This document shows positions 1 through 13,570 of a stretch of DNA of 41,047 nt, one piece after another. Source of the stretch: a virus; IMG/VR virus record IMGVR_UViG_3300045988_053841, one strand, 5' to 3'. The notes beneath the pieces were generated by a model. The model saw only the letters and a program-made list of their open reading frames with translations, did not search any database and was not told the origin of the DNA. Positions within the stretch are counted from its first letter, which is position 1. Each line of letters opens with the position of its first letter. Both the position numbers and the translations under genes were made by a program.

Positions 1-119
1 AAAGCCTTGTGGCACAAAGCTTGCGTGGAAAATTTGATAAAACGTGGAAAGACATAAAAAATCAAAAATGGCATGGGCAACAATCCTATGGTCGGCGCGA
101 CCGTGGCCGTGGCTGTTGC
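1..119. repeat. Terminal direct repeat, copy A. Most likely a circular-genome overlap, alternatively a physical DTR.
   Basis: Bases 1-119 read identical to 40929-41047. The window begins and ends exactly at the repeat boundaries, with no flanking host DNA. Confidence 0.9.
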
Positions 120-220
120 TGTGGCGGAGGCTGTAAAAGCTTGATGGCACAAGGGCTGCTGGATTTTCGGCAAAATTGTGACTTCCTAAATAACGGGCGA
201 CGAATAGGCCGAAAACCCGG

Positions 221-263
221 TTTTGTCCACATTTTGTCCACATTTTTTCTGAACGTGGACAAG
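221..263. repeat. Putative integrase arm-type binding sites of attP (TGTCCACATT x2 direct, plus one inverted GTGGACA)
   Basis: TGTCCACATT at 224-233 and 235-244, with inverted GTGGACA at 256-262. The same tandem pair recurs at 40844-40864, on the other side of the circular junction. Confidence 0.5.
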
Positions 264-271
264 AAATAGGC

Positions 272-304
272 GAGAAAAGAGCGCTGCCGCCAGCAGCGCT
301 CTTT
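272..304 (-). terminator. Rho-independent terminator downstream of the integrase
   Basis: Perfect stem AAAGAGCGCTGC / GCAGCGCTCTTT (276-287 / 293-304) with a 5-nt loop. On the minus strand it is followed by TTTTCTC. Confidence 0.7.
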
Positions 305-1619
305 AATTTGCGGCATACAGGCTTTCAAGCTTTTTGGCCGTGTCGGCCTCCATCTGCTGCGTAAGGTGCTGGTAGATGTTGAGGGTGGTTTTGATATCCT
401 TGTGACCGAGGCGCACCTGCACCGCCTTGGGAGGCACTCCGGCAAAGAGAAGCTCCGTGCAGTGCGTGTGCCGCAGCGAGTGATAGTCGAAGGAGGGACA
501 AATGGCATCCGGGGATCGAACGCGGGATACCTTGCCGTTCTTCTGCACATTCCGCCAGCCGTGGATCACACGGCAGCATTCCTGCATGGTACGCGGACGG
601 ATAAGGGAGCCGTCGTCATTGACGTTGATCATGTGGATCTCCGTGCCGATGCCATCGGTGTTGAGTGTAAATGGGGGGACATCGTCCGCGGAGCTGCGTG
701 CCGGGGTGACATATTGCCGTTGGAAATAGGGACCATAGGAGAGCTGCGCCTCCCGCTGGTGCTGCCGGGTACGTCGGAGCAGCGCCAGCGTTGCGCTGTC
801 CAGTTGGATGGTGCGGTAACTGTCGTACTTCGGGGGAGCGAAATACAGATCATCCGGAGAGCGCCTGCGTTCCTTCGGAGAGGTATCGCCGCCTCCGGGG
901 CGGTATTGGATCTGACGGTTGACAGACAAGGTGGCAGCGCCGAAGTCTACGTCCTCCCACTGCAGGGCGAAAGCTTCGCCGAGCCGGAGGCCGCAGCGGT
1001 AGCCGAGAACAAGCGGGATGTGCATGGGATGCCCCTCCGGGAAGCGCTCGAATATCCGGTGGATGGTATCGGCGTCCAGAACGTCCCGTTGCTTAGTGCG
1101 TGTCTTTAACATGGGCTGCGCTCCGCGCCGGGGGAGTTCGGCATCCGGCACGGGGCTATTCTGAATAAACTTCATCTTTTTGGCATACTTCATGGACTTG
1201 CTGAGGATGCCCTTTACACCCGCGATGGTGTTGCGGCTGTATCCGCGGTTGAACAGGTCGTCGATGAGCGCCTGCACAGAGGCGGTCTGGAGCGCAGATA
1301 TGGGGTATTTGCCGATGGCGGGGACGATATGGTTCTTTATCTTCTTGCGGTAGTTGGTGAGGGTGGTATCTTTGAAGTTGAAAACACCGTAATTATCCAG
1401 CCAGTAGTTGAGGAAATCGGCCACGCTCATTTGGGACGGAGTGAACTTTAGACCGGAGTTCCGGTATTCCTGCCAGGCTGTCATGCCGGCGGCGTATGCC
1501 TCGCCGGCGGTATCGAAGCCGCCGCGGGAGATCCACTGCCGCTTGCCGCCGACGGACGCGGACTCGAAGCGGTATTCGTATTTCTTGCCTCGCCGGCGGG
1601 TAAGCACTTTACTGCCCAT
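303..1619 (-). CDS. int: Tyrosine recombinase / phage integrase
   Basis: ATG at 1619 is preceded by GGGAGGTG. The C-terminus carries HSLRHTHCT (HxxR) and LGHKDIKTTLNIY (catalytic Tyr). The track ORF extension to 1787 has no RBS and overlaps the next gene. Confidence 0.93.
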   Translation of the reverse strand: MGSKVLTRRRGKKYEYRFESASVGGKRQWISRGGFDTAGEAYAAGMTAWQEYRNSGLKFTPSQMSVADFLNYWLDNYGVFNFKDTTLTNYRKKIKNHIVPAIGKYPISALQTASVQALIDDLFNRGYSRNTIAGVKGILSKSMKYAKKMKFIQNSPVPDAELPRRGAQPMLKTRTKQRDVLDADTIHRIFERFPEGHPMHIPLVLGYRCGLRLGEAFALQWEDVDFGAATLSVNRQIQYRPGGGDTSPKERRRSPDDLYFAPPKYDSYRTIQLDSATLALLRRTRQHQREAQLSYGPYFQRQYVTPARSSADDVPPFTLNTDGIGTEIHMINVNDDGSLIRPRTMQECCRVIHGWRNVQKNGKVSRVRSPDAICPSFDYHSLRHTHCTELLFAGVPPKAVQVRLGHKDIKTTLNIYQHLTQQMEADTAKKLESLYAAN

Positions 1620-2232
1620 CTTTGTCACCTCCCGGCTCGTGACCGATGAAAACGGTGTGGGATCGCTTCGTATACCGGGAGGACATACGAAGCAGACAGT
1701 GGCCCATGACGCAGGCGGCCGCGATGACCAGAAGCAGAATAAACCACGCGGCAAGCGAGATGTTGCCGCCGATGATAAGTCCCGCATTTGGGAGACGAAA
1801 GTCCCAAATTAGATACCAGACTACAGCAAAGAACATAAGCGAACAGACAGTGATAAGCGAATAGGTACGCCGCGTCAGTTCGGAGCGGAGAGCATCGTTG
1901 CTATCCCGCAGACTGCGGATCTCGCCATTGCGCTCCGCCAGTTCCAGCTCAAGGGCACGGATCCGCTGCTCCAGCTCCGCGCGCTGGCGCTCCGCCTCCG
2001 GCCTGACTGCGCCGAACATCTCATCGATGGACAGATCCAGCACGCGGGCCAACGCCGCCGCCTGCACGATGGTAACGCCGCCGTTGCCGCTTTGTGCGTT
2101 GCGGACGGTGGAGTATGGGACGCCGGAGCGCTCGGATAATTTTTCGTTGGTGAGGCCGAAGCGGGAACGTGCCATGCGGAATGCTTTGGGGTATGCACGG
2201 ATGTATGGGGATAACTCGTCAATAACGGACAT
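1609..2232 (-). CDS. Membrane-anchored XRE-family HTH protein (HTH, coiled coil, two TM helices)
   Basis: ATG at 2232 is preceded by AAGGAGG. N-terminal HTH (LTNEKLSERSGVPYSTVRNAQSG), a central E/R/A/L-rich heptad-like stretch, and hydrophobic helices LITVCSLMFFAVVWYLIW and ISLAAWFILLLVIAAACVMG. Confidence 0.75.
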   Translation of the reverse strand: MSVIDELSPYIRAYPKAFRMARSRFGLTNEKLSERSGVPYSTVRNAQSGNGGVTIVQAAALARVLDLSIDEMFGAVRPEAERQRAELEQRIRALELELAERNGEIRSLRDSNDALRSELTRRTYSLITVCSLMFFAVVWYLIWDFRLPNAGLIIGGNISLAAWFILLLVIAAACVMGHCLLRMSSRYTKRSHTVFIGHEPGGDKDGQ

Positions 2233-2251
2233 AGTGCTCCTCCTTACATAA

Positions 2252-2310
2252 ATTACCCATATTGGGTAGCAATTCCCCAAATTGGGCAAATTTTTACCCG
2301 AATATAGGTA
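2252..2310. promoter_or_regulatory. Three tandem 17-bp operator-like repeats upstream of the membrane-anchored HTH gene
   Basis: ATTACCCATATTGGGTA (2252-2268), ATTCCCCAAATTGGGCA (2272-2288) and TTTACCCGAATATAGGTA (2293-2310). Spacing is about 20-21 bp, and the first two are internally palindromic. Confidence 0.5.
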
Positions 2311-2371
2311 GGAAAAAATTGAGAAAAAACGCGAATTGTTAAAATAGGGCAGAAATTGTCAGGATAGCTCA

Positions 2372-2401
2372 TTGACTTTTCGTCTACGCCGGCAGCATAA
2401 T
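2372..2401 (+). promoter_or_regulatory. Candidate promoter reading into the 3' end of the repressor gene (antisense)
   Basis: TTGACT (2372-2377), 18-nt spacer, CATAAT (2396-2401). Confidence 0.35.
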
Positions 2402-2444
2402 GAATACAGAAGGAAGCAGGAAGCCGGACGTAAAGGGGAGAGAA

Positions 2445-2597
2445 ATGAGTTTAGATGACAGGATACTGGAAAGGTTCCAACTACTGACGGAGGACGAGAA
2501 GATCCTCATCCTCGTTGGCTTAATAGAGTCTCTATCTGGGCCAGCAGCAGACGCTTCTGATCCTCGGTCAGACAGCGCAGCAGCTCGATCAGCTTGA
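2445..2597 (+). CDS. Possible small ORF (50 aa), convergent with and overlapping the repressor 3' end
   Basis: ATG at 2445 is preceded by AAGGGGAG. It encodes MSLDDRILERFQLLTEDEKILILVGLIESL..., which resembles the repressor C-terminal LTEDQKRLLLAQIETLL. The last ~90 nt overlap the minus-strand CDS, so the call is uncertain. Confidence 0.3.
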   Translation: MSLDDRILERFQLLTEDEKILILVGLIESLSGPAADASDPRSDSAAARSA

Positions 2598-2844
2598 CAT
2601 CCAGAGGGGAAAGACCGTCGCCGGCCAGGGCGGCGGTTTTTTCATAGCCGGCGCCAAAGAGAAGTTCGCTTTTATCAAGGCCGAAGAAAGCGGCCAACTT
2701 CTCCACGGCGCCCATTCTGGGCTCACGCTTGCCGGACTCCCATGTGGATACGGCCTTGTCGGAGACTCCGACGGCGTCGCCTAACTGTGCCTGTGTGAGC
2801 CCGCGAGACTCGCGTAAACTCTTGATATTTTCACCGATGGACAT
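2506..2844 (-). CDS. CI-like XRE-family HTH repressor
   Basis: ATG at 2844 lies 8 nt after GGAGGTG. HTH is LTQAQLGDAVGVSDKAVSTWESGKREP. The gene is divergent from a Cro-like gene across a 140-bp switch region. Confidence 0.8.
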   Translation of the reverse strand: MSIGENIKSLRESRGLTQAQLGDAVGVSDKAVSTWESGKREPRMGAVEKLAAFFGLDKSELLFGAGYEKTAALAGDGLSPLDVKLIELLRCLTEDQKRLLLAQIETLLSQRG

Positions 2845-2871
2845 AAGCATCACCTCCGAGTTTATGGGTAC

Positions 2872-2900
2872 AGCATATACTAAATGTAGGAAAATTGCAA
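2872..2900 (-). promoter_or_regulatory. Candidate repressor promoter
   Basis: On the minus strand: TTGCAA (2895-2900), 17-nt spacer, TATGCT (2872-2877). Confidence 0.35.
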
Positions 2901-2931
2901 CATCAAAAAATAAAATTCCTACAAATAGTTC

Positions 2932-2960
2932 TTGACATCCTACTTATTGTAGAGTATAGT
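2932..2960 (+). promoter_or_regulatory. Near-consensus sigma-A promoter for the Cro-like gene, with an overlapping operator
   Basis: TTGACA (2932-2937), exact 17-nt spacer, TATAGT (2955-2960). The spacer contains TCCTAC-ttatt-GTAGAG. Related half-sites are TGTAGGAA (2885-2892) and TTCCTACA (2915-2922). Confidence 0.7.
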
Positions 2961-2984
2961 GTGAGGCAGAAGGAGGTGAACGAG

Positions 2985-3203
2985 ATGCAATTCTCACCCA
3001 AAATGGCACGGCAATTCGCCGGACTGACACAGGTGGAAATGGCTGAAAAACTGGGCATTTCTCGCGATACTTACAGGCGCATAGAGGCCCATCCGGAGAC
3101 AGCGACCATCTCGCAAGGCAAGATGATCGCTGCGGTCACCGGCGTAAGCTTTGATACTATTTTTTTTGGCGGCAACTCTACAAAAAGTAGAGTTTCGGCG
3201 TAA
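2985..3203 (+). CDS. Cro-like XRE HTH regulator (72 aa)
   Basis: ATG at 2985 is preceded by GAAGGAGGTG. HTH is LTQVEMAEKLGISRDTYRRIE. The gene is divergent from the CI-like gene. Confidence 0.75.
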   Translation: MQFSPKMARQFAGLTQVEMAEKLGISRDTYRRIEAHPETATISQGKMIAAVTGVSFDTIFFGGNSTKSRVSA

Positions 3204-3207
3204 ATAA

Positions 3208-3231
3208 GACCGCGCCCGGAGGGACGCGGTC
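3208..3231. terminator. Hairpin between the convergent cro-like and YHYH genes
   Basis: GACCGCG (3208-3214) pairs with CGCGGTC (3225-3231). On the minus strand it is followed by TTATTTA. There is no clean T-run on the plus strand. Confidence 0.35.
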
Positions 3232-3240
3232 GGCAGGGGA

Positions 3241-3666
3241 CTATTTCTTTTTCTTCCGGGAACGCATGGCCCACTCATAGATGGCGACCGGGATCGCAAA
3301 GGCGATGACAGTCTCCGCGATGCCAAGCCAAAACTTGGTGCTCGTAATGAGCGACACGAGGTCGTCCCATGTCGAGGTGGAAGCCTTGACCGGTTCGCCG
3401 GTATCAGCGTCATTCCGCAGCACGGGCATTTCAACGGAGCCGGAGCCGCCACCATCGGACGGCCGGCTATCAGCACCGGTGCGGTCATCGAAGTTGTATG
3501 GGCACTGCCCGTTGTAATGCTGGTGGGCCTTGTGGCCGTGGTGGTAATGGTATTCGCCGGTGGAACGGTCGTAATGGCCACCGGCGGCATCGGTGCCTCC
3601 GGGATGAGCGAGAGCCACCGTGCAGCAGAGAAGCAGCGCAAAGAGCGCTACGAGCAGTTTCTTCAA
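3241..3666 (-). CDS. Secreted, membrane-anchored YHYH-motif protein (moron)
   Basis: TTG start at 3666 lies 9 nt after GGAGGTG. Signal-peptide-like N-terminus (MKKLLVALFALLLCCTVALA), the motif GGHYDRSTGEYHYHHGHKAH, a C-terminal TM helix and a KKKK tail. The protein contains VEMPVLRN. Confidence 0.7.
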   Translation of the reverse strand: MKKLLVALFALLLCCTVALAHPGGTDAAGGHYDRSTGEYHYHHGHKAHQHYNGQCPYNFDDRTGADSRPSDGGGSGSVEMPVLRNDADTGEPVKASTSTWDDLVSLITSTKFWLGIAETVIAFAIPVAIYEWAMRSRKKKK

Positions 3667-3690
3667 GACACATCACCTCCCCTTTACGCC

Positions 3691-3719
3691 AGTATAGCAC
3701 GGCGGCGGGGCGGGCGCAA
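3691..3719 (-). promoter_or_regulatory. Candidate own promoter of the YHYH moron
   Basis: On the minus strand: TTGCGC (3714-3719), 17-nt spacer, TATACT (3691-3696). Confidence 0.4.
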
Positions 3720-3735
3720 GAGAGGAGGGCAGGAC

Positions 3736-3978
3736 ATGACGAACATAGAACAGCTGCCTCGGCTGCTGACGGTGCCGGAGGTGGCGGAGCTGCTGGGCGT
3801 CAACCAGGGGAAGGTACACGAACTGCGGAAAAGCGGTCTGCTGCCCTTCCTGAAGCTGGGCGCTTACAAGTGCCGCCCGGAGGCGCTGGAGGAATTTCTG
3901 GCGAAATGGGAGGGCTGGGACATTTCAAACCCCTACCAACCGTGCGAAATGAACCCGGCGGAGGCCGGGAGCAAATAA
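3736..3978 (+). CDS. xis: Excisionase-family / MerR-like HTH DNA-binding protein
   Basis: ATG at 3736 is preceded by AGAGGAGGG. The sequence LLTVPEVAELLGVNQGKVHELRKSGLLPFLKLG is typical of the excisionase-type HTH_17 fold. The gene sits in the lysogeny module. Confidence 0.6.
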   Translation: MTNIEQLPRLLTVPEVAELLGVNQGKVHELRKSGLLPFLKLGAYKCRPEALEEFLAKWEGWDISNPYQPCEMNPAEAGSK

Positions 3979-4001
3979 TCAACAACAGGAGGAAAAACAA
4001 C

Positions 4002-4658
4002 ATGAAACATGAGACTTTGACCATTTGGAGCGCGGAGGACTTTGCCCGCCCGGAGAAGCTGGCGGCGCTGCGCGTGGGCGACGAGGTCGCCTTCCAACTC
4101 AAGAACGGCAAAGATGCCGCCTTTGTGGTGGCGGACATCGCCGATGGCGTCCTTACCGGCTGCCTTTTTAAGGGCGTGCGGGACATGGCCATGTACGACG
4201 GCCGCCGCTGGTGGAACACCGACTATGTGAACTATCCGGAGAGCGACGCCAGAGAGCGCCTCAACGAGGAGCTCCTGCCCCTGCTGCCGGACGAGCTGGG
4301 GGCACTGTTGGTGGAGCGCACCATCGTCCAGACGGTGGACGGCGTGGCGTACAGCTGCACGGACAAGCTGTGGCCCCTGTCTGCGGTGGAGGTGTTCGGT
4401 GAGGACGCGCCGGACTGGATGCGGCGGGACGATACGCCGGACAAGCCCCTGCCGTCTTTTGCCGAGGACCAGGCCAACCGGAAAGCGTACCTGTGGTATG
4501 CCTGGCTGCGCTCGCCGTATGCCAGCAACAGCAGCTATTTCTGCAGTGTGTACACGTCGGGCGCCGCGGACTACTACATTGCCAGCCTTTCGCTTGGCGT
4601 CGCCCCCGGCTTTCGCATCGGCATCAAGGCCAAGACGGCGGAGCCGGCGCAGGACTGA
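4002..4658 (+). CDS. DGR variable protein 2 (remote target), DUF6273-like / C-type-lectin-fold-like C-terminus
   Basis: ATG at 4002 is preceded by AGGAGG. The C-terminus AWLRSPYASNSSYFCSVYTSGAADYYIASLSLGVAPGF is encoded by VR2, which matches the TR at 29064-29188 except at TR adenines. Confidence 0.85.
   Translation: MKHETLTIWSAEDFARPEKLAALRVGDEVAFQLKNGKDAAFVVADIADGVLTGCLFKGVRDMAMYDGRRWWNTDYVNYPESDARERLNEELLPLLPDELGALLVERTIVQTVDGVAYSCTDKLWPLSAVEVFGEDAPDWMRRDDTPDKPLPSFAEDQANRKAYLWYAWLRSPYASNSSYFCSVYTSGAADYYIASLSLGVAPGFRIGIKAKTAEPAQD
4498..4615 (+). repeat. DGR variable repeat VR2
   Basis: Codon-by-codon comparison with the TR. TR AAT/AAC codons appear here as TAT, AAC, AGC, TAT, AGT, TAC, GAC, TAC, TAC, ATT and CTT. 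Non-adenine positions are identical, including the GGCGTCGCCCCCGG tract. Confidence 0.85.
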
Positions 4659-4668
4659 TCGAAAAGGC

Positions 4669-4693
4669 TATCCCCCGGCGCAAGCCGGGGATA
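4669..4693 (+). other. GC-rich hairpin with a GCAA loop downstream of VR2 (DGR target-recognition-type element)
   Basis: CCCCGGC (4673-4679), loop GCAA, GCCGGGG (4684-4690). It lies inside a 45-nt block (4658-4702) that is 40/45 identical to 28454-28498 downstream of VR1. Confidence 0.6.
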
Positions 4694-4708
4694 CGAAAGG
4701 AGCAGAGC

Positions 4709-4927
4709 ATGAACAAGAGAAAGAGCCGCGGCGCCAAGTTCGCCGAAGGGGAGCAGGCGGTGTGCCTCACCCCGGCGGCTGCGGAGAGAAACGGCGGGCA
4801 CCCGCCCATAGGCACGGTACTCCGGGCCACGAAGCGGAACGGCGCGTGGGCCTACCAGGTGCAGGTACGGGACACGGACCGCATCGAGACCTGGTCGGAG
4901 GACACGATGGGGAGGCTGACGGTATGA
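4709..4927 (+). CDS. Hypothetical protein (72 aa)
   Basis: ATG at 4709 is preceded by GAAAGGAG. Codon usage is GC3-rich, like the neighbouring genes. Confidence 0.55.
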   Translation: MNKRKSRGAKFAEGEQAVCLTPAAAERNGGHPPIGTVLRATKRNGAWAYQVQVRDTDRIETWSEDTMGRLTV

Positions 4928-5013
4928 GCGCCTTCGGATGGATATGCGCCTATATCGGCGCGGCGTGGCTGGCCGGGGCGGCGCTGAAATGCGTGGAGGC
5001 GCTGGGCCGGTGA
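4924..5013 (+). CDS. Possible small hydrophobic peptide (29 aa)
   Basis: ATGA overlap with the previous stop codon. GGGGAGG lies 9 nt upstream. Sequence MSAFGWICAYIGAAWLAGAALKCVEALGR. Confidence 0.35.
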   Translation: MSAFGWICAYIGAAWLAGAALKCVEALGR

Positions 5014-5546
5014 CAGAGACACGGATGGAACGGAACCGGCGGGCGCGGGTCTACAGCCACGCCTGCCGCATCCGGCGGCTGCGGAACGCCCTGTGGGCGG
5101 TGGCCGCCGTGCTGACGGTGCTGCTGGCGGTGGAGCTGATCTGGCTGCTAAGCAGCAGACCGGCGCCGGAGGGCACCGCGCAGGAGCCGCGGGAGATGGC
5201 GGTCCTGCTGGAGCCGGAGATCACGGAAAGCACCGGCGTGTTCACGGTGACGGGCTACTGCGCCTGCTGCACGCCGTACAGCCACCTCAACCGCTGCGGC
5301 GACCTTGTGCTGACCGCCAGCGGAGAGTGGGTACACCCCGGCGAGGCGGTGGCGGTGGATCCGGACATCATTCCGCTGGGCAGCACCGTGACCATAGGCG
5401 AAAAGACCTACAGGGCGCTGGACACCGGCGTGCGCGGCTATGTGGTGGATGTGCTGATGAGCCACGAGGACGCCGCCGCGGCCGGCGCCAGAAGGGAGCT
5501 GGTAACATGGACAACCGACCAAAGACAGGGAGAAACGCCGAGCTGA
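5010..5546 (+). CDS. Membrane-anchored 3D-domain (MltA/RlpA-like) cell-wall protein
   Basis: GTG at 5010 (GTGA overlap, GGAGG 10 nt upstream); ATG at 5025 is an alternative start. TM helix ALWAVAAVLTVLLAVELIWLL. 3D-domain pattern TVTGYCACC...TASG...VAVDPDIIPLGSTV...ALDTG...VDV. Confidence 0.65.
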   Translation: MTETRMERNRRARVYSHACRIRRLRNALWAVAAVLTVLLAVELIWLLSSRPAPEGTAQEPREMAVLLEPEITESTGVFTVTGYCACCTPYSHLNRCGDLVLTASGEWVHPGEAVAVDPDIIPLGSTVTIGEKTYRALDTGVRGYVVDVLMSHEDAAAAGARRELVTWTTDQRQGETPS

Positions 5547-5773
5547 AGCCCTGCCTGCACTGCACGGAACGCTACGTCGGCTGCCACGGAAGGAACGAGG
5601 ACGGGAGCTACCGCTGCGGGAAGTACGCCGAGGTGGAGGCCGCCAGGGCCGAGGAACGGGTGAAGCTGACCGCCTACCGGCGGGAGAAGGAGATAGACCG
5701 CTACCAGCGGCACAAGATCAACGAGTACAGCGCAAAGGCCGAAAAGGCCCGGATGCGCGGAAGGGGACGGTGA
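5507..5773 (+). CDS. Hypothetical Cys-rich protein (88 aa)
   Basis: ATG at 5507 is preceded by GAAGGGAG. Contains CLHC...C...C, then a basic coiled tail. Confidence 0.55.
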   Translation: MDNRPKTGRNAELKPCLHCTERYVGCHGRNEDGSYRCGKYAEVEAARAEERVKLTAYRREKEIDRYQRHKINEYSAKAEKARMRGRGR

Positions 5774-5775
5774 AT

Positions 5776-6102
5776 ATGGCCGAGGGAAAGGGCAAAAAAG
5801 ACGACTTCCTGTGGTGGGTACAGTGCGATGGCCACTACGACGTGCCGGTGATCGCCCCCAACTGGGAGCTGGCCACGGTGGAGGCGGCGCACCTGTGGGG
5901 TGTGCCGTGGGCCAAGGTGGCCGCCCGGTGCGAGCTGCGGGAGAAGCTGCCTGTGGTGCGGAACGTGTGCCAGCGGTGCGGCAAGATCTTTCACGGCTCC
6001 GGCCCGCTGTGCGACGACTGCATCAGCATCATCCGCATAGAGGAGCAGCGGAGGGCCGCCGCCAGGAAGGACTACTTCCGGCGGCTGTATGCCGGACATT
6101 GA
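5776..6102 (+). CDS. Hypothetical zinc-ribbon protein
   Basis: ATG at 5776; GTG at 5770 is an alternative start. Contains CQRCGKIFHGSGPLCDDC. Confidence 0.55.
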   Translation: MAEGKGKKDDFLWWVQCDGHYDVPVIAPNWELATVEAAHLWGVPWAKVAARCELREKLPVVRNVCQRCGKIFHGSGPLCDDCISIIRIEEQRRAAARKDYFRRLYAGH

Positions 6103-6145
6103 GAGCCGGACAAGAGACAAACAGACAAACAGGAGGAACTGTGCG

Positions 6146-6508
6146 ATGAACGAGTATTTGGACAAGGCGCTGGAGAAGCTGCGTACCGCCAAGGCGCCCA
6201 CGGGCCAACGGGAGGCCGTGGTGTTCAAACCGGTGGTGGCGGCGCTGGAGGACTTCTGCCGACAGGATGCGGAGTTCGCCCAGGCGGTGGCACAGGGCGG
6301 CAGCGTGGAGGAGTGCGTCAAGACCGTGCTGAAGGGCGTGGGCGGCAGCCTGAGCGACCTTGAGGCCTACAAGCGGGCGGCGGCGTTCTTCTTCCCCGGC
6401 TGCGTGGTGACCATGAAGCTGTCCATTGCCATGTGCGAGCACGACGTAGTCCAGGCGGTACCGCAGGAGCGCAAGGCCGTGGTGCTGGATCTGGCGGACT
6501 TCTGGTGA
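6146..6508 (+). CDS. PcfK-like protein (tentative)
   Basis: ATG at 6146 is preceded by AGGAGG. The pattern ...SVEECVKTVLKGVGGSLSDLEAYKRAAAFFFPG resembles my recollection of the PcfK-like family. It lies immediately upstream of a PcfJ-like gene, the usual pairing. Confidence 0.4.
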   Translation: MNEYLDKALEKLRTAKAPTGQREAVVFKPVVAALEDFCRQDAEFAQAVAQGGSVEECVKTVLKGVGGSLSDLEAYKRAAAFFFPGCVVTMKLSIAMCEHDVVQAVPQERKAVVLDLADFW

Positions 6509-6513
6509 GCGCC

Positions 6514-8292
6514 ATGATGGACGAAAAGGAGAGGGCCTCCGCGCTGGAGCGACTGGCCCCGAAGCCCACAGCGCAGGAGATGGAGGAGGTCAACGGACTG
6601 TTCCGGCACTTCCTGTTCAAGCGCTGCGGCAAGGGCGAGATATGGACTACCTGCTGCCGGCGGCATACCTTCATCAAGCCGGACACGGACAACGCAGACG
6701 AGCTGAGAGCGCTGCACGCGCCCCACACGCCAGAGCCCCGGAACGGCTGGGACCACTCGCCCACGGTGAAAAGGCGCTGCAGGTGCCCTTACTGCGGCGC
6801 AGAGGTCACGGTGAAGGAGCTGCGGTACTCCGGCGGGCGGGCCAACCTGTGGAGCTTCCGGCGGGCGGTCATCCTGCGGCAGTGGCGGGGCGCCCTGTGG
6901 GCCACGGCGTGGGACTGTGACAAGAACTACAGCCGCGTCGGCATGAACGGTGAGCCGGTGCTGACGGAGCTGCCGGAGATGAAGCTGCTGGGCGTGTACC
7001 GCTTTACGCCGGGCGTGGCGGAGCAGGCCACGCGGCCATGGTGGTGCAGCGGCGGCACACCCATGAGCTACCGGCGCCAGACCGCGCCCGGCAAGAGCAA
7101 CGGACGCAAGGGCGGGATGTGGCAGATCCATTCGCCCTACACCTACTGCGCCGAACTGGGCAGCAGCTATGACGTGATCGGGCTGACGGAGCTGGACAAG
7201 GGCTTTATGCGCTGGTGCGGTATCGGAAAGATACACTTGCCATCGGACGATTTTATCGAACTGCTGACGGCGTGCTGCTTTTATCCCAGGCAGATCGAAA
7301 TGCTGGTGAAGCTGGGGCTGGAGGACGCGGTGAAGGACCTTGTTGGACGCGGCGTGAGGAACGCCGACATCATCACGTGGGACGCGGACAAGCCCAGGAA
7401 CTTTATGAAATGCACGCCCAAGGAGGCGATGGCGGCGTGTTCTTCGATGGAGCCGACGCGGGTGCTGCGGCTGTATATCCGGCACAGGGACACGCCGCTG
7501 AAAATGACCATAGAAACCGCGGCGTGGCTCGCTGAGGCCACCATCGGCCGCGGCGAGGAGAACTACGCCGTGCGCCTGCTGAAGCGGCTTGGCATCACGG
7601 CGGAGAAGCTGACGGCCTATCTGGAAAAGAACCGGGTAGCGCTGCAGGAAGGCGGCAGGCCCGGCTCCGGCACCCGGAGAGGGGTGCTGCAGCTATACAA
7701 GGACTATCTGGACGCGGCGGAGAACTGCGGGATGGACATGGAAAACCCCCTGATCCTCATGCCGCGGGACCTTGTGGAAAAGCATGACCGGGTGACAGCG
7801 GCGTGGAGCGCCATACAGCGCCAGTACCGGAAGGCGGAGGACACAGCGGCGCAGAAAGCCGCCGCGGAGGCCTACAGGAAGCGGCTGCGCGCCCTGTCTG
7901 AAAAGTATCTATTCTGGACGGATGATTTCCTTATCCGCGCACCGGTCAACGCCGATGAGATCGTGGACGAGGGCAAGGCGCTGAAGCACTGCGTAGGCGG
8001 CTACGCTGCCCGGCACATGACGGGGGCGACAACCATCCTGTTCCTGCGCCGGCGGGACAGGCCCCACACGCCGCTGGCGACCATCGAGATGAACGGCAAC
8101 ACAGTCGTGCAGGTACACGGCTACCGGAACGAGCTGGAGGGCTGCGCCGACAACCCGAACCGGGAGAGCGCCAGAAAGCTGTACGCCGGGGTGCTGGAGC
8201 CCTGGCTGAAATGGCTGAAGGCCGGAAGCAAACGAGATGAGGACGGCAGGCCGAAGCTGCCGAAAAAGAGAGCGAGGAGGAACGCGGCATGA
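6514..8292 (+). CDS. PcfJ-like protein
   Basis: C-terminal KALKHCVGGYAARHMTGATTILFLRRRDRPHTPLATIEMNGNTVVQVHGYRN matches the PcfJ-like domain signature. There is an N-terminal Cys cluster. The start is taken at ATG 6514. Confidence 0.65.
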   Translation: MMDEKERASALERLAPKPTAQEMEEVNGLFRHFLFKRCGKGEIWTTCCRRHTFIKPDTDNADELRALHAPHTPEPRNGWDHSPTVKRRCRCPYCGAEVTVKELRYSGGRANLWSFRRAVILRQWRGALWATAWDCDKNYSRVGMNGEPVLTELPEMKLLGVYRFTPGVAEQATRPWWCSGGTPMSYRRQTAPGKSNGRKGGMWQIHSPYTYCAELGSSYDVIGLTELDKGFMRWCGIGKIHLPSDDFIELLTACCFYPRQIEMLVKLGLEDAVKDLVGRGVRNADIITWDADKPRNFMKCTPKEAMAACSSMEPTRVLRLYIRHRDTPLKMTIETAAWLAEATIGRGEENYAVRLLKRLGITAEKLTAYLEKNRVALQEGGRPGSGTRRGVLQLYKDYLDAAENCGMDMENPLILMPRDLVEKHDRVTAAWSAIQRQYRKAEDTAAQKAAAEAYRKRLRALSEKYLFWTDDFLIRAPVNADEIVDEGKALKHCVGGYAARHMTGATTILFLRRRDRPHTPLATIEMNGNTVVQVHGYRNELEGCADNPNRESARKLYAGVLEPWLKWLKAGSKRDEDGRPKLPKKRARRNAA

Positions 8293-9314
8293 GTATGTAT
8301 GACATGGTAGACACCACGCCGGAGGGGTATTCTGAGGGCGAGGAACTGAGCAAGATGTTCAGCGAGGATGATATGAGCGAGGCCTTTGAGGAGCGCGACA
8401 TCGACGTCATCACGGAGGAGATCAACTTCTACAAGCAGCAGGCCGGCATGGCCATTCTGGAGATCGGCAAGCGGCTGGTGGAGGCCAAGGCTCAACTCTC
8501 CCACGGGGAGTGGCTGCCGTGGCTGGAGAAAAAGGTGGAGTTCTCCGAGCGCAGCGCGCAGCAGTATATCCGGCTGTGGAAAGAGTACGGCAAATCCGCA
8601 ACCGTTGCGGATTTGGGCGTGCGGAAAGCCTTGGTATTGCTGGCTTTGCCGGACACGGAGCGCGACAGCTTCGCCGGCGAAAAGCATGAGGTGAACGGCG
8701 AGGAGAAGACCGCGGCGGAGATGACGGTGAAGGAGCTGGAAAAGGCCGTAGCAGAGCGCAACACCGCCCGCCAGGAGGCGGAACAAGCCAAGGCGGACCT
8801 GTACGCCGCCCGCGAAGCCGCCAGGGAGGCGCGGGATCATGTGGAAGCCCTGCGGGAAGAGCTGGAGGCACTGAAGAACCGGCCCACGGAGGTGGCCATT
8901 GAGCAGAGGGACGCCACGGAGGAACAGCTGGCCGCCGCCCGGCAGGAGGCCGAGGCAGCAGCTGCCAGGCGGGTGGCGGAGCTGGAAAAGGCACTGGAGC
9001 AGGCCCGCGGCGCTGCCGCGGCGGCCGAGGACAGGAAGGAGACCGCCGAGGCAGCGCTTCAGGATGCCGAACGTGAACGCGACAGCGCGCTGGATGCCGC
9101 CAAGGGCTACAAAGCCGAGGCGGAGGCCGCCCACAAGCTGGCTGCTGCCGCCAGCAACGAGGGCATGACCAAGTTCAAGGTGGTGTTCGATCAGACGGTG
9201 GAAAACGTGAACACGCTGGCCGCGCTGCTGCAGGCGCTGCCGGACAGTCAGCAGGAGAAGCTGCGGCGGGCACTGCTGGCACTGGCTGACCAGGTGCGGA
9301 AGGTGGGCGCGTGA
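8289..9314 (+). CDS. DUF3102-like protein with a long coiled-coil
   Basis: ATGA start/stop overlap with the previous gene. GKRLVEAKAQLSHGEWLPWLEKKVEFSERSAQQYIRLW is the DUF3102 signature. It is followed by an A/E/R-rich coiled coil. Confidence 0.6.
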   Translation: MSMYDMVDTTPEGYSEGEELSKMFSEDDMSEAFEERDIDVITEEINFYKQQAGMAILEIGKRLVEAKAQLSHGEWLPWLEKKVEFSERSAQQYIRLWKEYGKSATVADLGVRKALVLLALPDTERDSFAGEKHEVNGEEKTAAEMTVKELEKAVAERNTARQEAEQAKADLYAAREAAREARDHVEALREELEALKNRPTEVAIEQRDATEEQLAAARQEAEAAAARRVAELEKALEQARGAAAAAEDRKETAEAALQDAERERDSALDAAKGYKAEAEAAHKLAAAASNEGMTKFKVVFDQTVENVNTLAALLQALPDSQQEKLRRALLALADQVRKVGA

Positions 9315-9315
9315 T

Positions 9316-9525
9316 ATGGCGGAACACTGCGGAAGCTGCGTGTGGCGCTCCGGCCGGGCCGGATACAAATGCGACTACGCCGGCAAGACGGACCATACGC
9401 GAAAGGCGGAGTCTCCGGACGGCTGTACCTACTACCTGCGGGGCGACATCGTAACGGACGACCGGACAGCCCAGCGGCTGTATCGCAAGGTCATGGCAAA
9501 GAGAAATGCGGCGGGGCTGGCTTGA
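9316..9525 (+). CDS. Hypothetical Cys-rich protein (69 aa)
   Basis: ATG at 9316, directly after the previous stop codon. CGSC...C...C pattern. Confidence 0.5.
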   Translation: MAEHCGSCVWRSGRAGYKCDYAGKTDHTRKAESPDGCTYYLRGDIVTDDRTAQRLYRKVMAKRNAAGLA

Positions 9526-9601
9526 GCCGCCCCGCACCGCCCTCTTTTGAAAGCGGCTGCCCGATGACCGGGCGGCGGCTTTGAGGAGAGGAGGCGAGGG
9601 T

Positions 9602-11293
9602 GTGAACCTGCGGAACCCGAAGGAATACTGCGAAAACCTCTTGTGGATACGCACAAAAAAACAGACGATGGCGCGCCTGCGCTTCAACGACGCGCAGAAC
9701 AACCTGTACGGCGTCATCCGCCGGCAGGCGGCACAGGGGAAGCCCGTCCGTCTAATCGTCCTCAAAGGACGGCAGGAGGGTATCTCCACGGTGACGGAGG
9801 GGCTAATGTTCCAGGACACGGTGACGCGCCCCAACGTAAAGACGCTGATCGTGGCCCACGAAAATACGGCCACGGCCAACCTGTTCAAGATGAACAAGCT
9901 GTTCTACGACAGCCTTCCGCCCGGCGCGCAGCCTATGCGGAAGAACTCCAACGCCAAGGAGCTGGTGTTCGAGAACCCCACCAAGGACGAGAAGGAGAAG
10001 CGCCGCCGGCCGGGCCTGCGGAGCTCTATCCGCTGCCAGACGGCGGGCAAGGGCGGCGTGGGCCGAAGCGACACGCTGACCAATGTACATATCTCCGAGT
10101 ACGCCTTCTGGCCCAAGAACAAGGACGAGCTGCTGCTGGGCATCATGCAGGCGGTGCCGGATGAGCCGGACACGATGGTGGTCATCGAGTCCACCGCCAA
10201 CGGCTACGACCACTTCAAAACCCTATGGGACGACGCGGTGGCAGGCGTCAACGCATGGACGCCGGTATTTCTGCCGTGGTATCTGGAGCCGGGGTACCGG
10301 AAAAGCGTGCCGGCGGGCACCGTGTGGAGCGACGAGGAGGAAAAGCTGCGGCAGGACTTCGGGTTGGACGACGAGCAGCTCATGTGGCGGCGCTGGTGCA
10401 TCAAGGCCAACTGCGGCAACGACGCGGCCATGTTCCGGCAGGAGTATCCCAACACGCCGGACGAGGCGTTCTTGCTGAGTGGCGAGGGCTACTTCGACAA
10501 CGCGGCGCTGGGCCGCCAGCGGATGCACGCACCGGCGCCTGTGTCCGTGGGCTGGTTCGTATTCGACGAGCCAGCGGAGCCAGGGGCAGCGCCCCGGAAC
10601 TGGCGGTACGAGCCCGGAGAGACCGGGGCGGTGCGTATCTGGCAGACGCCGGAGAAGGGCGCGCCCTATGTGCTGGGCGGCGACACGGCCGGAGAGGGCA
10701 GCGACCGCTTCACGGCCTTCGTGTTGGACAACCGCACCGGGGCGCAGGTAGCGGAGCTGCAGATGCCACTGTCCGAGATACAGTATGCCCGACAGATCTA
10801 CTGCCTGGGCCGATACTACAACGATGCGCTGGCGGCGGTGGAGGTCAACTTCTCCACCTACCCAGAGAACAAGCTGGAGGAATGGCACTACCCGAAGCTC
10901 TACCAGCGGGAGCGCTTCGACACCTTTAAGAATGTGATGGTCAAGTCTCAAGGATGGGTGACGTCCCCTAAGACGCGGCCTCAGATGCTGGCTACGCTGC
11001 ACACGGTGATGGACGAGGAGCCGGGGCTGGTGGTGTCGGCGTGGACACTGGGGGAGATGATCACCTTCGTGTACGACGAGAACCGCAAGCCGCAGGCGGC
11101 GGCGGGAGAACACGACGACCTGGTGATGGCGGCGGCCATCGCCCACACGGCCCGCACCCAGCAGAGGTACACCTCAGAGGCCGGCGGCGCGGACCGGCGG
11201 CACTGGACAAAGGATATGTGGGAGGACTGGCGCCGGGCGGATCCGGCGGCGCGGAAACGGTTGGAAGCGGAGTGGAAACTTTCCGAAAAATAA
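9602..11293 (+). CDS. terL: Terminase large subunit
   Basis: GTG at 9602 lies 8 nt after AGGAGG (TTG 9581 and ATG 9668 are alternative starts). Walker-A-like VLKGRQEGIST, Walker-B-like LTNVHISEYAF, ESTANG, and C-terminal nuclease-type GEHDDLVMAAAIA. Confidence 0.85.
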   Translation: MNLRNPKEYCENLLWIRTKKQTMARLRFNDAQNNLYGVIRRQAAQGKPVRLIVLKGRQEGISTVTEGLMFQDTVTRPNVKTLIVAHENTATANLFKMNKLFYDSLPPGAQPMRKNSNAKELVFENPTKDEKEKRRRPGLRSSIRCQTAGKGGVGRSDTLTNVHISEYAFWPKNKDELLLGIMQAVPDEPDTMVVIESTANGYDHFKTLWDDAVAGVNAWTPVFLPWYLEPGYRKSVPAGTVWSDEEEKLRQDFGLDDEQLMWRRWCIKANCGNDAAMFRQEYPNTPDEAFLLSGEGYFDNAALGRQRMHAPAPVSVGWFVFDEPAEPGAAPRNWRYEPGETGAVRIWQTPEKGAPYVLGGDTAGEGSDRFTAFVLDNRTGAQVAELQMPLSEIQYARQIYCLGRYYNDALAAVEVNFSTYPENKLEEWHYPKLYQRERFDTFKNVMVKSQGWVTSPKTRPQMLATLHTVMDEEPGLVVSAWTLGEMITFVYDENRKPQAAAGEHDDLVMAAAIAHTARTQQRYTSEAGGADRRHWTKDMWEDWRRADPAARKRLEAEWKLSEK

Positions 11294-11313
11294 AAACAGG
11301 AGGAATGTGCGAC

Positions 11314-11478
11314 ATGGATTTTTTCAGTATCGTATGCGGCGCGGCGTCGCTGCTGTGGCTGGCGGCCGGTGCGCTGGCGGTGGAGGACCGCTGGCGGCAG
11401 CGGCGTCTGACCCAAAAGAGCGAGGAGGCGCTGGACAGGCTGCTGGAGGAGGTGTTCGACGATGAGCAAGACGACTGA
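11314..11478 (+). CDS. Small membrane protein (54 aa)
   Basis: ATG at 11314 lies 10 nt after AGGAGG. Hydrophobic N-terminus FFSIVCGAASLLWLAAGALAV. Confidence 0.5.
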   Translation: MDFFSIVCGAASLLWLAAGALAVEDRWRQRRLTQKSEEALDRLLEEVFDDEQDD

Positions 11479-11851
11479 GCTGGTGGAAAGGCTGCGGGAG
11501 CTGCCGCGAGACACGCGAAAAGCCACCGTGGAGATCTACGACCTGTGCATCGAGGCGTCGTATGAGATCGAGGGGCTGACGGACCGGTGCGCCCGGTACG
11601 CCGAGGAGATCGCGGTGCTGCAGGAAAAGCAGAAGTGGGTGGACGCCGGGGCGCGTCAGCCGGAGTACGGCGCGTCGGTGCTGGCGGTGGCCAGCGGCAA
11701 GGCGGAAAACATCACCCTGTGCGACGCGGTTGTATTAGCCACGTTCTGGGATGGCTGGGAGCTGGACGACTACCCGCAGGCGGAGGACGTGGCCGTGAAG
11801 TGGTGGATGCCCACGGTGGAGAGCCCGGAGGGCACAGAGCATGACGGATAA
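11462..11851 (+). CDS. Hypothetical protein (129 aa)
   Basis: ATG at 11462 is preceded by GGAGGAGGTG. Codon usage is consistent with neighbours. Confidence 0.55.
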   Translation: MSKTTELVERLRELPRDTRKATVEIYDLCIEASYEIEGLTDRCARYAEEIAVLQEKQKWVDAGARQPEYGASVLAVASGKAENITLCDAVVLATFWDGWELDDYPQAEDVAVKWWMPTVESPEGTEHDG

Positions 11852-12038
11852 GGAATTGATCGCCAGCTTGAAGCGGCTGAAGGTGCAGACCGGGAGCCTC
11901 GCCTGCCTGGGCTGCGGGCGGGAGCATAACTGCGGGATCCATGGCTGCGCCATTCTGCGGGAGGCCGTCGCCTTTGTGGAAAAGAAGCTGGCGGAGGACA
12001 GGGGCCGCAGCGTGATGGCGTATCGGGATGGGAACTAA
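11841..12038 (+). CDS. Hypothetical protein (65 aa)
   Basis: ATG at 11841 is preceded by GGAGGG. Cys/His cluster CLGCGREHNCGIHGC. Confidence 0.5.
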   Translation: MTDKELIASLKRLKVQTGSLACLGCGREHNCGIHGCAILREAVAFVEKKLAEDRGRSVMAYRDGN

Positions 12039-12297
12039 GGTGAACCCGCGGCGGGTGCCGCGGACGCAGAAGGACGTGGATGCCGCCTATGACCGGGGCA
12101 TCACGGAGGGCCTGCACCGGGGCATTGAGCTGATGCTCTACGTCCTGATCGACAAGCACGCCGCGCCCATGGACGACGTGCAGCAGCTGGCCCGGGAGCT
12201 AAACCACGCCGCCGGGTGCGTGGCCGAGGGCTACGTCACCTGGGCGGACATCCGGCGGATGCTGAAGGAATACGAGGTGGAGGTGGTGCTGGAATGA
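12028..12297 (+). CDS. Hypothetical protein (89 aa)
   Basis: ORF in an operon context. The RBS is weak, and GTG at 12040 is an alternative start. Confidence 0.45.
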   Translation: MGTKVNPRRVPRTQKDVDAAYDRGITEGLHRGIELMLYVLIDKHAAPMDDVQQLARELNHAAGCVAEGYVTWADIRRMLKEYEVEVVLE

Positions 12298-12572
12298 AGA
12301 AGTACCGCGAGGAGCTGTACAGGAAGACGGTGTATTGTCCGACGTGCCGGGGCGTGACGCCACAGGGCTGCCCGCGCTGCGGCGGGGTGGGACTGGTGGT
12401 AGTGCCGGCCACAAGAGGCGACGTCCTCCGGCGGATGTCGGACAGGGAGCTGGCGGTGCAGCTGTTCGACTTCCGCTTTGACGGCTACGCCAAGGCGCAG
12501 GGCGCGGAGACCGTCCTGCCGGACACGATACATAGCATAGAAAACTGGCTGAAGGAGGAGATGGACGAATGA
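12294..12572 (+). CDS. Hypothetical zinc-ribbon protein (92 aa)
   Basis: ATGA overlap with the previous stop codon. Contains CPTCRG...CPRCGG. Confidence 0.5.
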   Translation: MKKYREELYRKTVYCPTCRGVTPQGCPRCGGVGLVVVPATRGDVLRRMSDRELAVQLFDFRFDGYAKAQGAETVLPDTIHSIENWLKEEMDE

Positions 12573-13249: not shown

Positions 13250-13252
13250 ACC

Positions 13253-13570
13253 ATGGCGGACGTGAATGTGGCGCTGCTGGTCAGCCAGACGGTGACCGAG
13301 GCCCAGAGCCAGAGCCGGATCAAGATGGGCCGGGACTATGCCAGCTTTTACGAGGCGTGGGCGGTCCTGCGGCAACGGATCGAGGAGACCAAGCGGGACG
13401 CCAAGGCGCTGGAGAAGCTGCACAGCGAGCTGTGGGACGCCATCAAGGACGGCAACGAGGACGAGGCCCTTATTGAGATGGGCGCCATCAACGCCAGCGC
13501 CGCGGCGCTGTGCGCGGCCTTCGCGGGCATGGCGGCAGAGGCCCAGCGGGCGGTGGAGGAACAGACGTAA
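13253..13570 (+). CDS. Hypothetical helical protein (105 aa)
   Basis: ATG at 13253 is preceded by GGAAGGAGGG. Confidence 0.5.
   Translation: MADVNVALLVSQTVTEAQSQSRIKMGRDYASFYEAWAVLRQRIEETKRDAKALEKLHSELWDAIKDGNEDEALIEMGAINASAAALCAAFAGMAAEAQRAVEEQT

Follow-up and report, generated by a model that had tools for sequence, protein, structure and literature searches.

The gene at positions 4002-4658 of the viral genome IMGVR_UViG_3300045988_053841 from IMG/VR (41,047 nt, the whole stretch of DNA that was analysed, here called the window) appears to be a true second target on which the single diversity-generating retroelement (DGR) of this phage still acts, a reading to which we assign a probability of roughly 0.88 from the comparison of related sequences. 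The element contains one template repeat (TR) and two variable repeats (VRs): VR1, which lies in a target gene of the tail module, and VR2, which lies in 4002-4658. To our knowledge, DGRs are the only natural system for targeted hypermutation of proteins in bacteria and phages. Phage DGRs are usually explained as a means of tail retargeting, and an active target among the early genes that has no virion-anchoring domain does not fit this explanation.

Adenine-templated variation in a second repeat

The TR at 29071-29188 and VR2 at 4498-4615 align without gaps over 118 nt, and all 12 mismatches between them fall on TR adenines, of which there are 28 (12/12, hypergeometric p = 3.6e-9). All mismatches between VR1 (28305-28428) and the TR are likewise located at TR adenines (14/14), and each of the 11 differences between VR1 and VR2 is at a TR-adenine position. 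The 11 AAY codons of the TR share one frame in VR1 and VR2, and they read TAT, AAC, AGC, TAT, AGT, TAC, GAC, TAC, TAC, ATT and CTT in VR2. A preliminary description of the window had listed these eleven codons and claimed that VR2 departs from the TR at adenines only, unless careful alignment were to reveal other mismatches; the codons are exact, and no mismatch at another base was found in the window. There are exactly three copies of the repeat in the window, namely the TR, VR1 and VR2.

One of the 12 mismatches, at position 29183, has a fixed state. The base that follows the GC-rich run (GGCGTCGCCCCCGG in the window) is A in every TR (GGATTT) and C in every VR1 and VR2 (GGCTTT), both in the ten genomes examined and in Dulem virus 34. 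Given this fixed state across genomes, the mismatch is the distinction between the initiation of mutagenic homing (IMH) site of the VRs and the corresponding IMH* of the TR rather than a mutagenic event, and mutagenesis accounts for 11 of the 12 differences in VR2. The run GGCGTCGCCCCCGG is present at VR1, VR2 and the TR, and TCGCTTGGCGTCGCCCCCGG occurs exactly three times in the window.

Both a TR and VR2 are present in four relatives; in these and the window (five genomes in all), the differences between VR2 and the TR of the same genome number 11-16 at adenines and 0-1 elsewhere. The TR adenines are invariant in the TR copies of the relatives, except for a copy with VR-like substitutions in locus L026 (IMG/VR contig 3300045988_000863). 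This copy is placed on the reverse strand at about 2840-2965, with TR flanks on both sides and GGATTTCGTGCC at its 3' end. Its substitutions are confined to the 3' half and are in part common to VR1 of the same contig, and the copy is a TR that has been corrupted or else a chimera caused by the repeats during assembly.

The evidence for diversification comes from comparison between genomes. The product of 4002-4658, here called the VR2 protein, has 94 homologues, 81 of which are exactly 218 amino acids long and have an identity of 79-93%, and several of the clusters at 90% identity hold hundreds to more than 1600 distinct member sequences. Across the 81 homologues, the entropy is 2.5-3.4 bits at residues 173, 176, 178, 179, 182, 184, 190-193 and 196, which are the eleven residues encoded by the AAY codons, as compared to a mean of 0.29 bits over residues 1-165. 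Among 15 distinct alleles, the divergence is 52% at adenine-templated sites, 2.6% at non-adenine sites in the VR and 6.2% in the 496 nt upstream. For example, loci L001 and L006 differ at 2 of the 496 upstream bases and at none of the 90 non-adenine VR sites, but at 15 of the 27 adenine sites. The scaffold has a ratio of nonsynonymous to synonymous substitution rates (dN/dS) of 0.35, the corresponding ratio of polymorphisms within the VR (pN/pS) is 7.1, none of the 15 alleles contains an internal stop codon, and the scaffold of the gene is under purifying selection. According to the preliminary description, a single TR appeared to supply two targets that had diversified independently, in the tail module and in a remote, non-structural neighbourhood, and invariance of VR2 across related genomes would speak for a dead target. 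The first of these claims is strengthened by the population data, and VR2 was found to vary strongly, and only at adenine-templated sites.

Two polymorphisms connect the three repeats. A C/G polymorphism at 29174, inside the GC run, has one state across the TR, VR1 and VR2 of each genome, and a G/A polymorphism at 29136 is concordant among the three repeats of each genome; the one exception, an A-to-G change in a VR2, again affects an adenine. For this three-way agreement, sequence must have passed from the TR to both VRs. As 6 of 7 co-mutated sites in the window are identical, it was considered whether VR1 and VR2 share their ancestry or are subject to conversion between them, and this was rejected by a comparison with unrelated pairs. 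When VR1 and VR2 from unrelated genomes were paired, 51% of the co-mutated sites had the same base and 18% of the pairs shared at least six, while VR1 and VR2 from one and the same genome shared just 1-4 of 6-7 co-mutated sites in the other genomes. The sharing is thus explained by position-specific preferences and not by linkage.

The TR is followed by an open reading frame (ORF) for a reverse transcriptase (RT; Table 1), which is open from 29152 and has a likely start (MTSAERREGRY) at 29467. The translation holds NGASQQ, an SQ-containing motif, and YMDD, and homologous RTs are placed directly after the TRs in about 19 other loci. A GC-rich hairpin motif is present twice in the window, once after each VR, and is absent after the TR. 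The full stem at VR1 is CCCCCGGC-GGAA-GCCGGGGG, located about 37 nt from the end of the homology, and its loop is GAAA in some relatives. The VR2 hairpin folds at -9.9 kcal/mol and is invariant in all VR2 relatives, hence without stem covariation; 4673-4690 is a putative hairpin or cruciform for recognition of the target by the DGR. About 40 nt around the hairpin, including the ribosome-binding site of the next gene, are alike at the VR1 and VR2 sites, which points to duplication of a module consisting of VR, IMH and hairpin as the origin of VR2.

By analogy to the DGR of Bordetella phage BPP-1, the prototype for the mechanism, the TR would be transcribed and then copied to cDNA by the RT, probably aided by the ORF in the Avd position, with misincorporation opposite adenines. 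The mutagenised cDNA would replace either of two recipient sites, VR1 or VR2, each marked by a 3' IMH of GGCGTCGCCCCCGG and CTTT (ATTT in the TR) and by the GC hairpin downstream, so that the DGR would act in trans over 16-24 kb. An active VR2 would show that a GCAA loop at a distance of 57 nt is compatible with homing, which is useful for the engineering of DGR targets.

Some observations weigh against VR2 as an active target. The ORF at 28510-29013 has no recognisable Avd signature, as it gave no sequence match in Pfam, NCBIfam or PDB. DGR hairpins have been described as GC stems of 7-10 bp with 4-nt GRNA loops at 4-34 bp from the VR (Guo 2011, PMC3240598), and the VR2 hairpin falls outside these ranges both in its loop and in its distance. 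At the position equivalent to 29167, every TR has a T while both VRs of some relatives have a G, a difference at a non-adenine base. Finally, homing is deduced from comparisons between genomes.

The site equivalent to 29167 (4594 in VR2 and 28409 in VR1) is located directly 5' of the GC run of the IMH, and the TR codon is CTT. VR1 has a G at this site in six genomes, and VR2 has a G in two of the genomes in which the TR was seen and an A in one. The loci with the difference are L016, L019, L031, L033, L021, L018, L032 and L023. In the VR2 protein, the change to G converts Leu198 to Arg, and the 81 homologues include 49 with Leu and 31 with Arg at this residue.

It is very improbable that VR2 has decayed from a duplicate of the VR1 region into a relic that homing no longer reaches and whose adenine-only differences date from past activity. 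The likeness of the 40 nt downstream of the two VRs makes an origin by duplication likely, and the loop and spacing of the VR2 hairpin are non-canonical. However, the near-identical alleles that differ at adenine sites and at no other VR site, the copying of a TR polymorphism into VR2, the hundreds to thousands of distinct members in single clusters at 90% identity, and the purifying selection on a scaffold that is free of stop codons in every allele contradict a dead target, and this reading was rejected.

The synteny around VR2 is repeated in about 15 independent contigs and in the isolate Vescimonas sanitatis MH37-1, a prophage of which contains a close copy of the region. Related contigs come from metagenome-assembled genomes of Oscillospiraceae. 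The least probable of the alternatives, namely that the copy at 4498-4615 is a repeat-induced mis-join in the assembly or is served by a TR outside the genome, draws on the terminal overlap of the source assembly and on the copy in L026, which may be a chimera of this kind, but was rejected given that the unique flanks on both sides of VR2 are kept in all these contigs and in the isolate, that VR2 carries its own extension of 13 codons, that the TR in the genome accounts for every VR2 difference and that the window holds no further copy of the repeat.

The product of 4002-4658 and its possible roles

The gene call of the preliminary description is upheld by an AGGAGG motif at 9 nt upstream and by the shared length of the 81 homologues. 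The VR2 protein matches PF19789 (DUF6273) at residues 66-206 (E = 1.8e-13; 51.1 bits versus a cut-off of 23.5). A HMMER search against 1.84 billion cluster representatives identified 483 relatives, many of which are stand-alone proteins of 200-220 amino acids that align over residues 20-206 or so, while others are giant proteins with multiple repeats. The target of VR1 contains a beta-sandwich-like N-terminal region and a C-terminal DUF6273 domain, and its gene is located directly after the collagen-like fibre gene. The two targets show 39% identity over 126 amino acids (BLASTP, E = 3e-18), with residues 9-204 of the VR2 protein aligning approximately to residues 100-335 of the VR1 target, and the VR2 protein lacks the N-terminal 95 or so residues of the latter. 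Judged by these alignments, the VR2 protein is a stand-alone DUF6273 module, with a probable binding function, and a paralogue of the C-terminal domain in the VR1 target. It is a one-domain protein whose VR is close to the C-terminus, and it contains no immunoglobulin (Ig) domain. Its last 13 residues, which are well conserved (entropy of 0.19 bits), are predicted with low confidence by AlphaFold2 (AF2) and are probably disordered.

An AF2 model built from the close homologues and VR1-type proteins only had a pLDDT of 45.8 and was unusable; it was replaced by a model based on an alignment of 83 diverse cluster representatives, for which the pLDDT was 90.7. The variable residues in this model are placed on strands 179-183 and 189-193 and in neighbouring loops, and the eleven residues templated by the AAY codons would thus lie on a predicted beta-hairpin and its loops (173-196), re-randomised independently of those in VR1. 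A Foldseek search matched the model to 9qa6, the only solved structure that contains DUF6273, namely the IgA protease of T. ramosa with an N-terminal DUF6273 domain (E = 2.7e-4, TM-score 0.57), and to 29 viral DUF6273, fibre or receptor-binding protein models in BFVD at E <= 1e-3, most of them with TM-scores of 0.55-0.70. Neither Mtd, TvpA nor any lectin was recovered from PDB at a significant E-value, so that this search gives no confirmation of a C-type-lectin (CLec) fold.

Some of the homologues differ in architecture. P0084 (336 amino acids) is a frameshifted allele, which departs from its frame inside the VR and continues in that of the sequence downstream. Two remoter stand-alone homologues with 36-49% identity, P0127 and P0134 (217-218 amino acids), have a zinc-ribbon-like motif (CxH...CPxCG) at their N-terminal ends that is absent from the protein in the window.

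We infer that the VR2 protein is a diversified ligand binder made from the early rightward operon. Its role is less certain, and with a confidence that falls short of an even chance we lean to a function outside the virion, in the infected cell, such as host takeover or counter-defence. This reading is favoured by the recurrent placement of such genes in early regions, by the missing anchoring domain and by the counter-defence neighbours found elsewhere. Genes of this type are found on at least five unrelated backbones in regions that are early or rich in counter-defence genes, namely in Dulem virus 34, the L073 lineage, L042, Toutatis and the window, where the gene is placed directly before that of a 3D-domain protein, with genes for PcfJ and DUF3102 proteins further on. 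What speaks against an intracellular role is that all contexts in which DUF6273 has been characterised are extracellular or associated with the virion, including tail-fibre fusions, a cell-wall-anchored IgA protease and giant repeat proteins, and that the timing of expression rests on gene order and one consensus match to a promoter.

A less probable but serious alternative is that the VR2 protein is a second virion-associated protein for receptor binding or adhesion, or an extracellular ligand binder, that is encoded outside the structural module. It would join the tail, fibre or capsid at assembly and provide each phage with two independently diversified specificities. Consistent with this, it is paralogous to the tail-module target across the whole DUF6273 domain, both targets are served by the same TR and have the same position-specific residue preferences (for example at Tyr-rich sites), and some of the models that resemble it in structure are named as tail-collar fibre, receptor-binding or tail endopeptidase proteins. 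Single-domain DUF6273 targets of DGRs have been read as Mtd-like receptor-binding proteins (Baykov 2023). The preliminary description had remarked on the lack of an obvious signal peptide. The sequence indeed contains neither a signal peptide nor a membrane segment, but the lack of a signal peptide is normal for virion proteins and discriminates nothing because the tail-module target is also without one. On the other hand, the N-terminal residues that are missing relative to the VR1 target are a plausible anchor, and a location in an early, non-structural region, here and on at least four other unrelated backbones, is unusual for a structural protein.

It is improbable that the gene is expressed from the prophage in the manner of a moron and serves the lysogen, for example through superinfection control, as proposed in the preliminary description, or through a benefit to the host. 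The gene is located about 1 kb from the immunity region and beside a divergently transcribed, moron-like gene for a secreted YHYH protein. However, it is co-oriented and tightly spaced with the genes of the early operon, its product contains no signal peptide or membrane segment that would allow action at the cell surface, and the counterparts in FP_Toutatis and Dulem virus 34 are located 7-9 kb from the immunity region. No promoter-like or (intrinsic) terminator-like site of its own was found around the gene, and the moron reading was therefore not adopted.

Returning to the intracellular role, we consider it possible, albeit doubtful, that the small, stand-alone and remote DUF6273 targets of DGRs represent a conserved class of early-expressed hypervariable binders that are not part of the virion. 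If so, the phage would keep re-randomising a set of binders that act within the infected cell or at its envelope, and such binders might neutralise variable host defence proteins or assist in host takeover, unlike the use of DGRs solely for tail retargeting.

Genome context

The window starts and ends with an exact direct repeat of 119 bp (1-119 is identical to 40929-41047) and represents a circular or terminally redundant assembly of a genome of 40,928 bp. The distance of 24 kb between VR2 and the TR in the preliminary description is correct for the linear sequence (24.5 kb), but it is 16.2 kb the other way round the circle. The phage is temperate (Table 1). The gene for the VR2 protein had been assigned to an early or lysogeny region, just after an excisionase-like gene. 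The latter is in place, with a PF12728 match and a stop codon located 23 nt ahead of the VR2 gene. The surrounding genes are early and non-structural, but they do not form a lysogeny module in the strict sense. The site at 2932-2960 is a candidate early rightward promoter, identified as a consensus match, for an operon that would include the VR2 gene.

Table 1. Coordinates of features in the window
Feature	Position	Strand	Remarks
Tyrosine integrase	303-1787	-	
Two helix-turn-helix (HTH) regulators, leftward	1609-2289 and 2506-2853	-	
Promoter-like site	2932-2960	+	11/12 consensus matches, ahead of cro-like gene
cro-like HTH gene, rightward	ORF 2895-3203, likely start 2982	+	
Secreted YHYH protein, 141 aa	3241-3666	-	NF033223 E = 7e-12, signal-peptide-like N-terminus
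HTH_17/excisionase-type DNA-binding protein	3736-3978 (likely start 3736)	+	PF12728 E = 4e-12, phrog_66
Ribosome-binding site AGGAGG	3987-3992	+	9 nt before ATG at 4002
VR2 target gene	4002-4658	+	218 aa
VR2	4498-4615	+	codons 166-205 of 218
IMH-like 3' end of VR2	4596-4615	+	GC-rich GGCGTCGCCCCCGG then CTTTCG; ATTTCG in TR
C-terminal extension	4616-4658	+	13 codons IGIKAKTAEPAQD and stop; conserved, absent from VR1 target
VR2 GC-rich inverted repeat (putative)	4673-4690	+	CCCCGGC-GCAA-GCCGGGG, 57 nt past end of TR homology
3D-domain protein (cell-wall-binding/lytic-transglycosylase-type)	4938-5546	+	PF06725 E = 2e-4, phrog_22529
PcfJ-like protein	6433-8292		
DUF3102 protein	8289-9314		
Terminase-large-subunit-like ORF	9581-11293	+	phrog_2 E = 9e-21
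Replication initiator	15358-16191		
HNH endonuclease	16952-17446		
Portal	18038-19993		
Major head protein	22026-23042		
Virion structural protein	23727-25610		
Collagen-like tail-fibre gene	25623-27419	+	fibre PHROG matches
DGR cassette	27424-30588		
VR1 target gene, 337 aa	27424-28437	+	PF19789 E = 4.6e-9, phrog_37900 E = 8e-101
VR1	28305-28430	+	3' end of tail-module target gene
VR1 hairpin	28469-28486	+	CCCCGGC-GGAA-GCCGGGG; 8th pair extends to 28468-28487
Accessory ORF in usual Avd position, between target and TR	28510-29013	+	167 aa, phrog_30516 E = 4.6e-31
TR	29063-29188	+	adenine-rich, 11 AAY codons in VR reading frame
DGR reverse transcriptase	29467-30588	+	RVT_1 E = 4.5e-12, phrog_1423 E = 5.5e-55
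Holin	31797-32279		
Endolysin	32269-32970		
LPD3-containing polyvalent-type protein, 1959 aa	34310-40189	+	follows lysis cassette

The YHYH gene opposes the early operon between the cro-like and HTH_17 genes, has a terminator-like hairpin at 3231-3208, and looks like a moron or lysogenic-conversion gene. The score of the 3D-domain protein for PF06725 (21.9 bits) is slightly under the gathering cut-off of 23.8. The sole match for the protein encoded by 34310-40189 is LPD3 (large polyvalent protein-associated domain 3, Pfam), with no match in PHROG or NCBIfam, and it may be a polyvalent protein of the kind tied to conflict with host defences. The terminase-like ORF is located about 7 kb upstream of the HNH and portal genes with the replication initiator in between, which is an unusual order of modules. 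Among the ORFs scanned, no sheath, tube or tape-measure gene was recognised and no methyltransferase was found.

The collagen-like gene, with Gly-X-Y repeats of 9-nt periodicity, is the source of the largest repeat families in the window. Clusters of an 11-nt direct repeat (TTTGTCCACAT / TTGTCCACA) at 212-264 and 40832-40873 flank the junction of the 3' end of the integrase gene and the ORF at 40233-40775, and these could be arm-type sites of the integrase around attP, or operator sites.

The region upstream of the VR2 gene is mosaic. The homology to L011, L037, L038 and L039 sets in abruptly at 3941, which is 61 nt ahead of the gene; in these four loci, the HTH_17 gene is swapped for another sequence, indicative of a mosaic junction, while the VR2 gene in L013 is preceded by a sequence that resembles 5233-5510 in the window. 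No relative was found in a megablast search of positions 1-12000 against phages in GenBank, and a tblastn search with the VR2 protein found Dulem virus 34 only. A search for loci related to P0127 gave no result.

Comparison with known systems

The novelty of a remote second target was overrated in the preliminary description, as prophages with a non-adjacent second DGR target have already been published, among them some in which this target is a small DUF6273 protein encoded in an early region. Wu et al. 2018 (PMC5758913) reported "many examples" of phage DGRs with one adjacent and one non-adjacent target in the same prophage, and a survey in Nature 2025 (PMC12629997) described a distal second VR, close to counter-defence genes, in four species of gut prophages. 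Neither survey assigns a function to the distal target, and the role is left open in the papers that have noticed such targets. The Faecalibacterium prophages Lelie, CP11 and Lagaffe_CP have second VRs at least 16-23 kb from the TR, and the two targets in Lelie and CP11 are one large and one small DUF6273 protein. The remote DUF6273 target belongs to the core genes of Toutatisvirus and is found in 98.8% of the genomes, while the DGR is found in 68% (sources for Toutatis and Lelie: Egorov et al. bioRxiv 10.1101/2024.10.15.618418; PMC11792537).

FP_Toutatis is, like the phage studied here, a temperate phage of an Oscillospirales gut host. In both, the tail module ends with a single TR and the RT, joined by Avd in FP_Toutatis and by the ORF in the Avd position here, and a second VR is placed some 16-17 kb off on the circular map. 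Its remote target, gp24, is a DUF6273 protein of 215 amino acids encoded between the immunity region and the replication initiator, in an early region that also contains two methyltransferases and a 3D-domain protein, to which the 3D-domain protein in the window is 34% identical. This arrangement equals that in the window, although the two remote targets are distant from each other: the BLASTP similarity is limited to 34 residues of the VR scaffold, and the similar segment in gp24 stops about 38 residues short of the C-terminus. Furthermore, the adjacent target in FP_Toutatis, which is Hoc-like or Ig-containing, is located downstream of the RT, unlike in the window, and FP_Toutatis is a myovirus of 54.7 kb, compared to 40.9 kb and no recognisable sheath or tape-measure gene here.

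Dulem virus 34 (PP511788.1, loci L040/L041) contains a DGR that is not annotated in the GenBank record and was found in this analysis. The segments 20678-22877 and 35648-36315 hold VR1, an ORF in the Avd position, the TR at 21420-21535 and an RT annotated as hypothetical, which is homologous to that in the window. VR1 is placed at the end of a 900-aa Ig-like tail gene, and the remote VR2 at the end of a 221-aa stand-alone DUF6273 protein that is encoded in the early region and is 32% identical to the VR2 protein. The gene for this small target immediately follows that of an adenine methyltransferase, and a cytosine methyltransferase is encoded nearby. The backbone, that of a 45-kb myovirus from lemur faeces, is unrelated to the window. 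Its IMH, GGCGTGGCCCCCGG (followed by C in the VRs and A in the TR), is one base off GGCGTCGCCCCCGG and equals the G-type allele in some relatives of the phage studied here, and its hairpin loops are canonical GAAA, unlike in the window.

Other loci provide further parallels. In L042, a primase-helicase module is preceded by the gene for a similar protein of 243 amino acids, which has an IMH and a GAAA hairpin; no RT was found in the approximately 10.5 kb downstream of this gene, and the contig ends about 0.6 kb upstream of it. L079 has a second target about 7 kb downstream of the RT. In the L071-75 / L090 lineage, a small VR-like gene is located beside a polynucleotide kinase (PNK)/RNA ligase, three methyltransferase ORFs and a phosphoadenosine phosphosulfate (PAPS) reductase. 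The remote copy in this lineage is 81% identical to the adjacent VR1 region, the hairpin included, and 74% identical to the TR, with differences also at non-adenine sites, and it represents a weaker parallel that is not counted as a proven active target. In L073 (IMG/VR contig 3300006139_000013), a dense run of putative counter-defence or toxin genes at 5834-16152 surrounds the small DUF6273 VR-like gene; these encode a MazF-like protein, a 728-aa PNK-phosphatase/RNA ligase, the three DNA methyltransferase ORFs and the PAPS reductase. Small DUF6273 proteins with a VR or VR-like end thus recur in early or counter-defence-rich regions of several unrelated backbones, and their recurrence in Dulem virus 34, L042, L071-75 and Toutatis argues that the early placement is selected and not accidental.

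Roseburia phage Shimadzu (bioRxiv 10.1101/575076) is similar to the window in that it is a temperate phage of Clostridia with one TR and an adjacent VR in a tail gene. Its VR2 is placed in orf43/44 of unknown function, and both VRs were modified according to read analysis; diversification has been demonstrated experimentally in Shimadzu and by comparative data in the window. The TvpA paralogues in Treponema denticola also combine one TR with several VRs, but they are cellular lipoproteins located hundreds of kb away. The tentaclins (Baykov 2023) have an N-terminal CLec/DUF6273 domain with the VR followed by Ig-like domains, an architecture that the VR2 protein does not match. The locus studied here is a clean example, with the TR, VR1 and VR2 on one circular genome of 40.9 kb and many natural alleles, and the prophage in the cultured Vescimonas sanitatis MH37-1 makes the question experimentally tractable. 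In BPP-1, where the DGR consists of Mtd, Avd, TR and Brt (Guo 2011, PMC3240598), Mtd is not a member of DUF6273 in Pfam and was not returned by Foldseek for the model of the VR2 protein, and a single adjacent tail-fibre target is diversified, unlike the two targets in the window.

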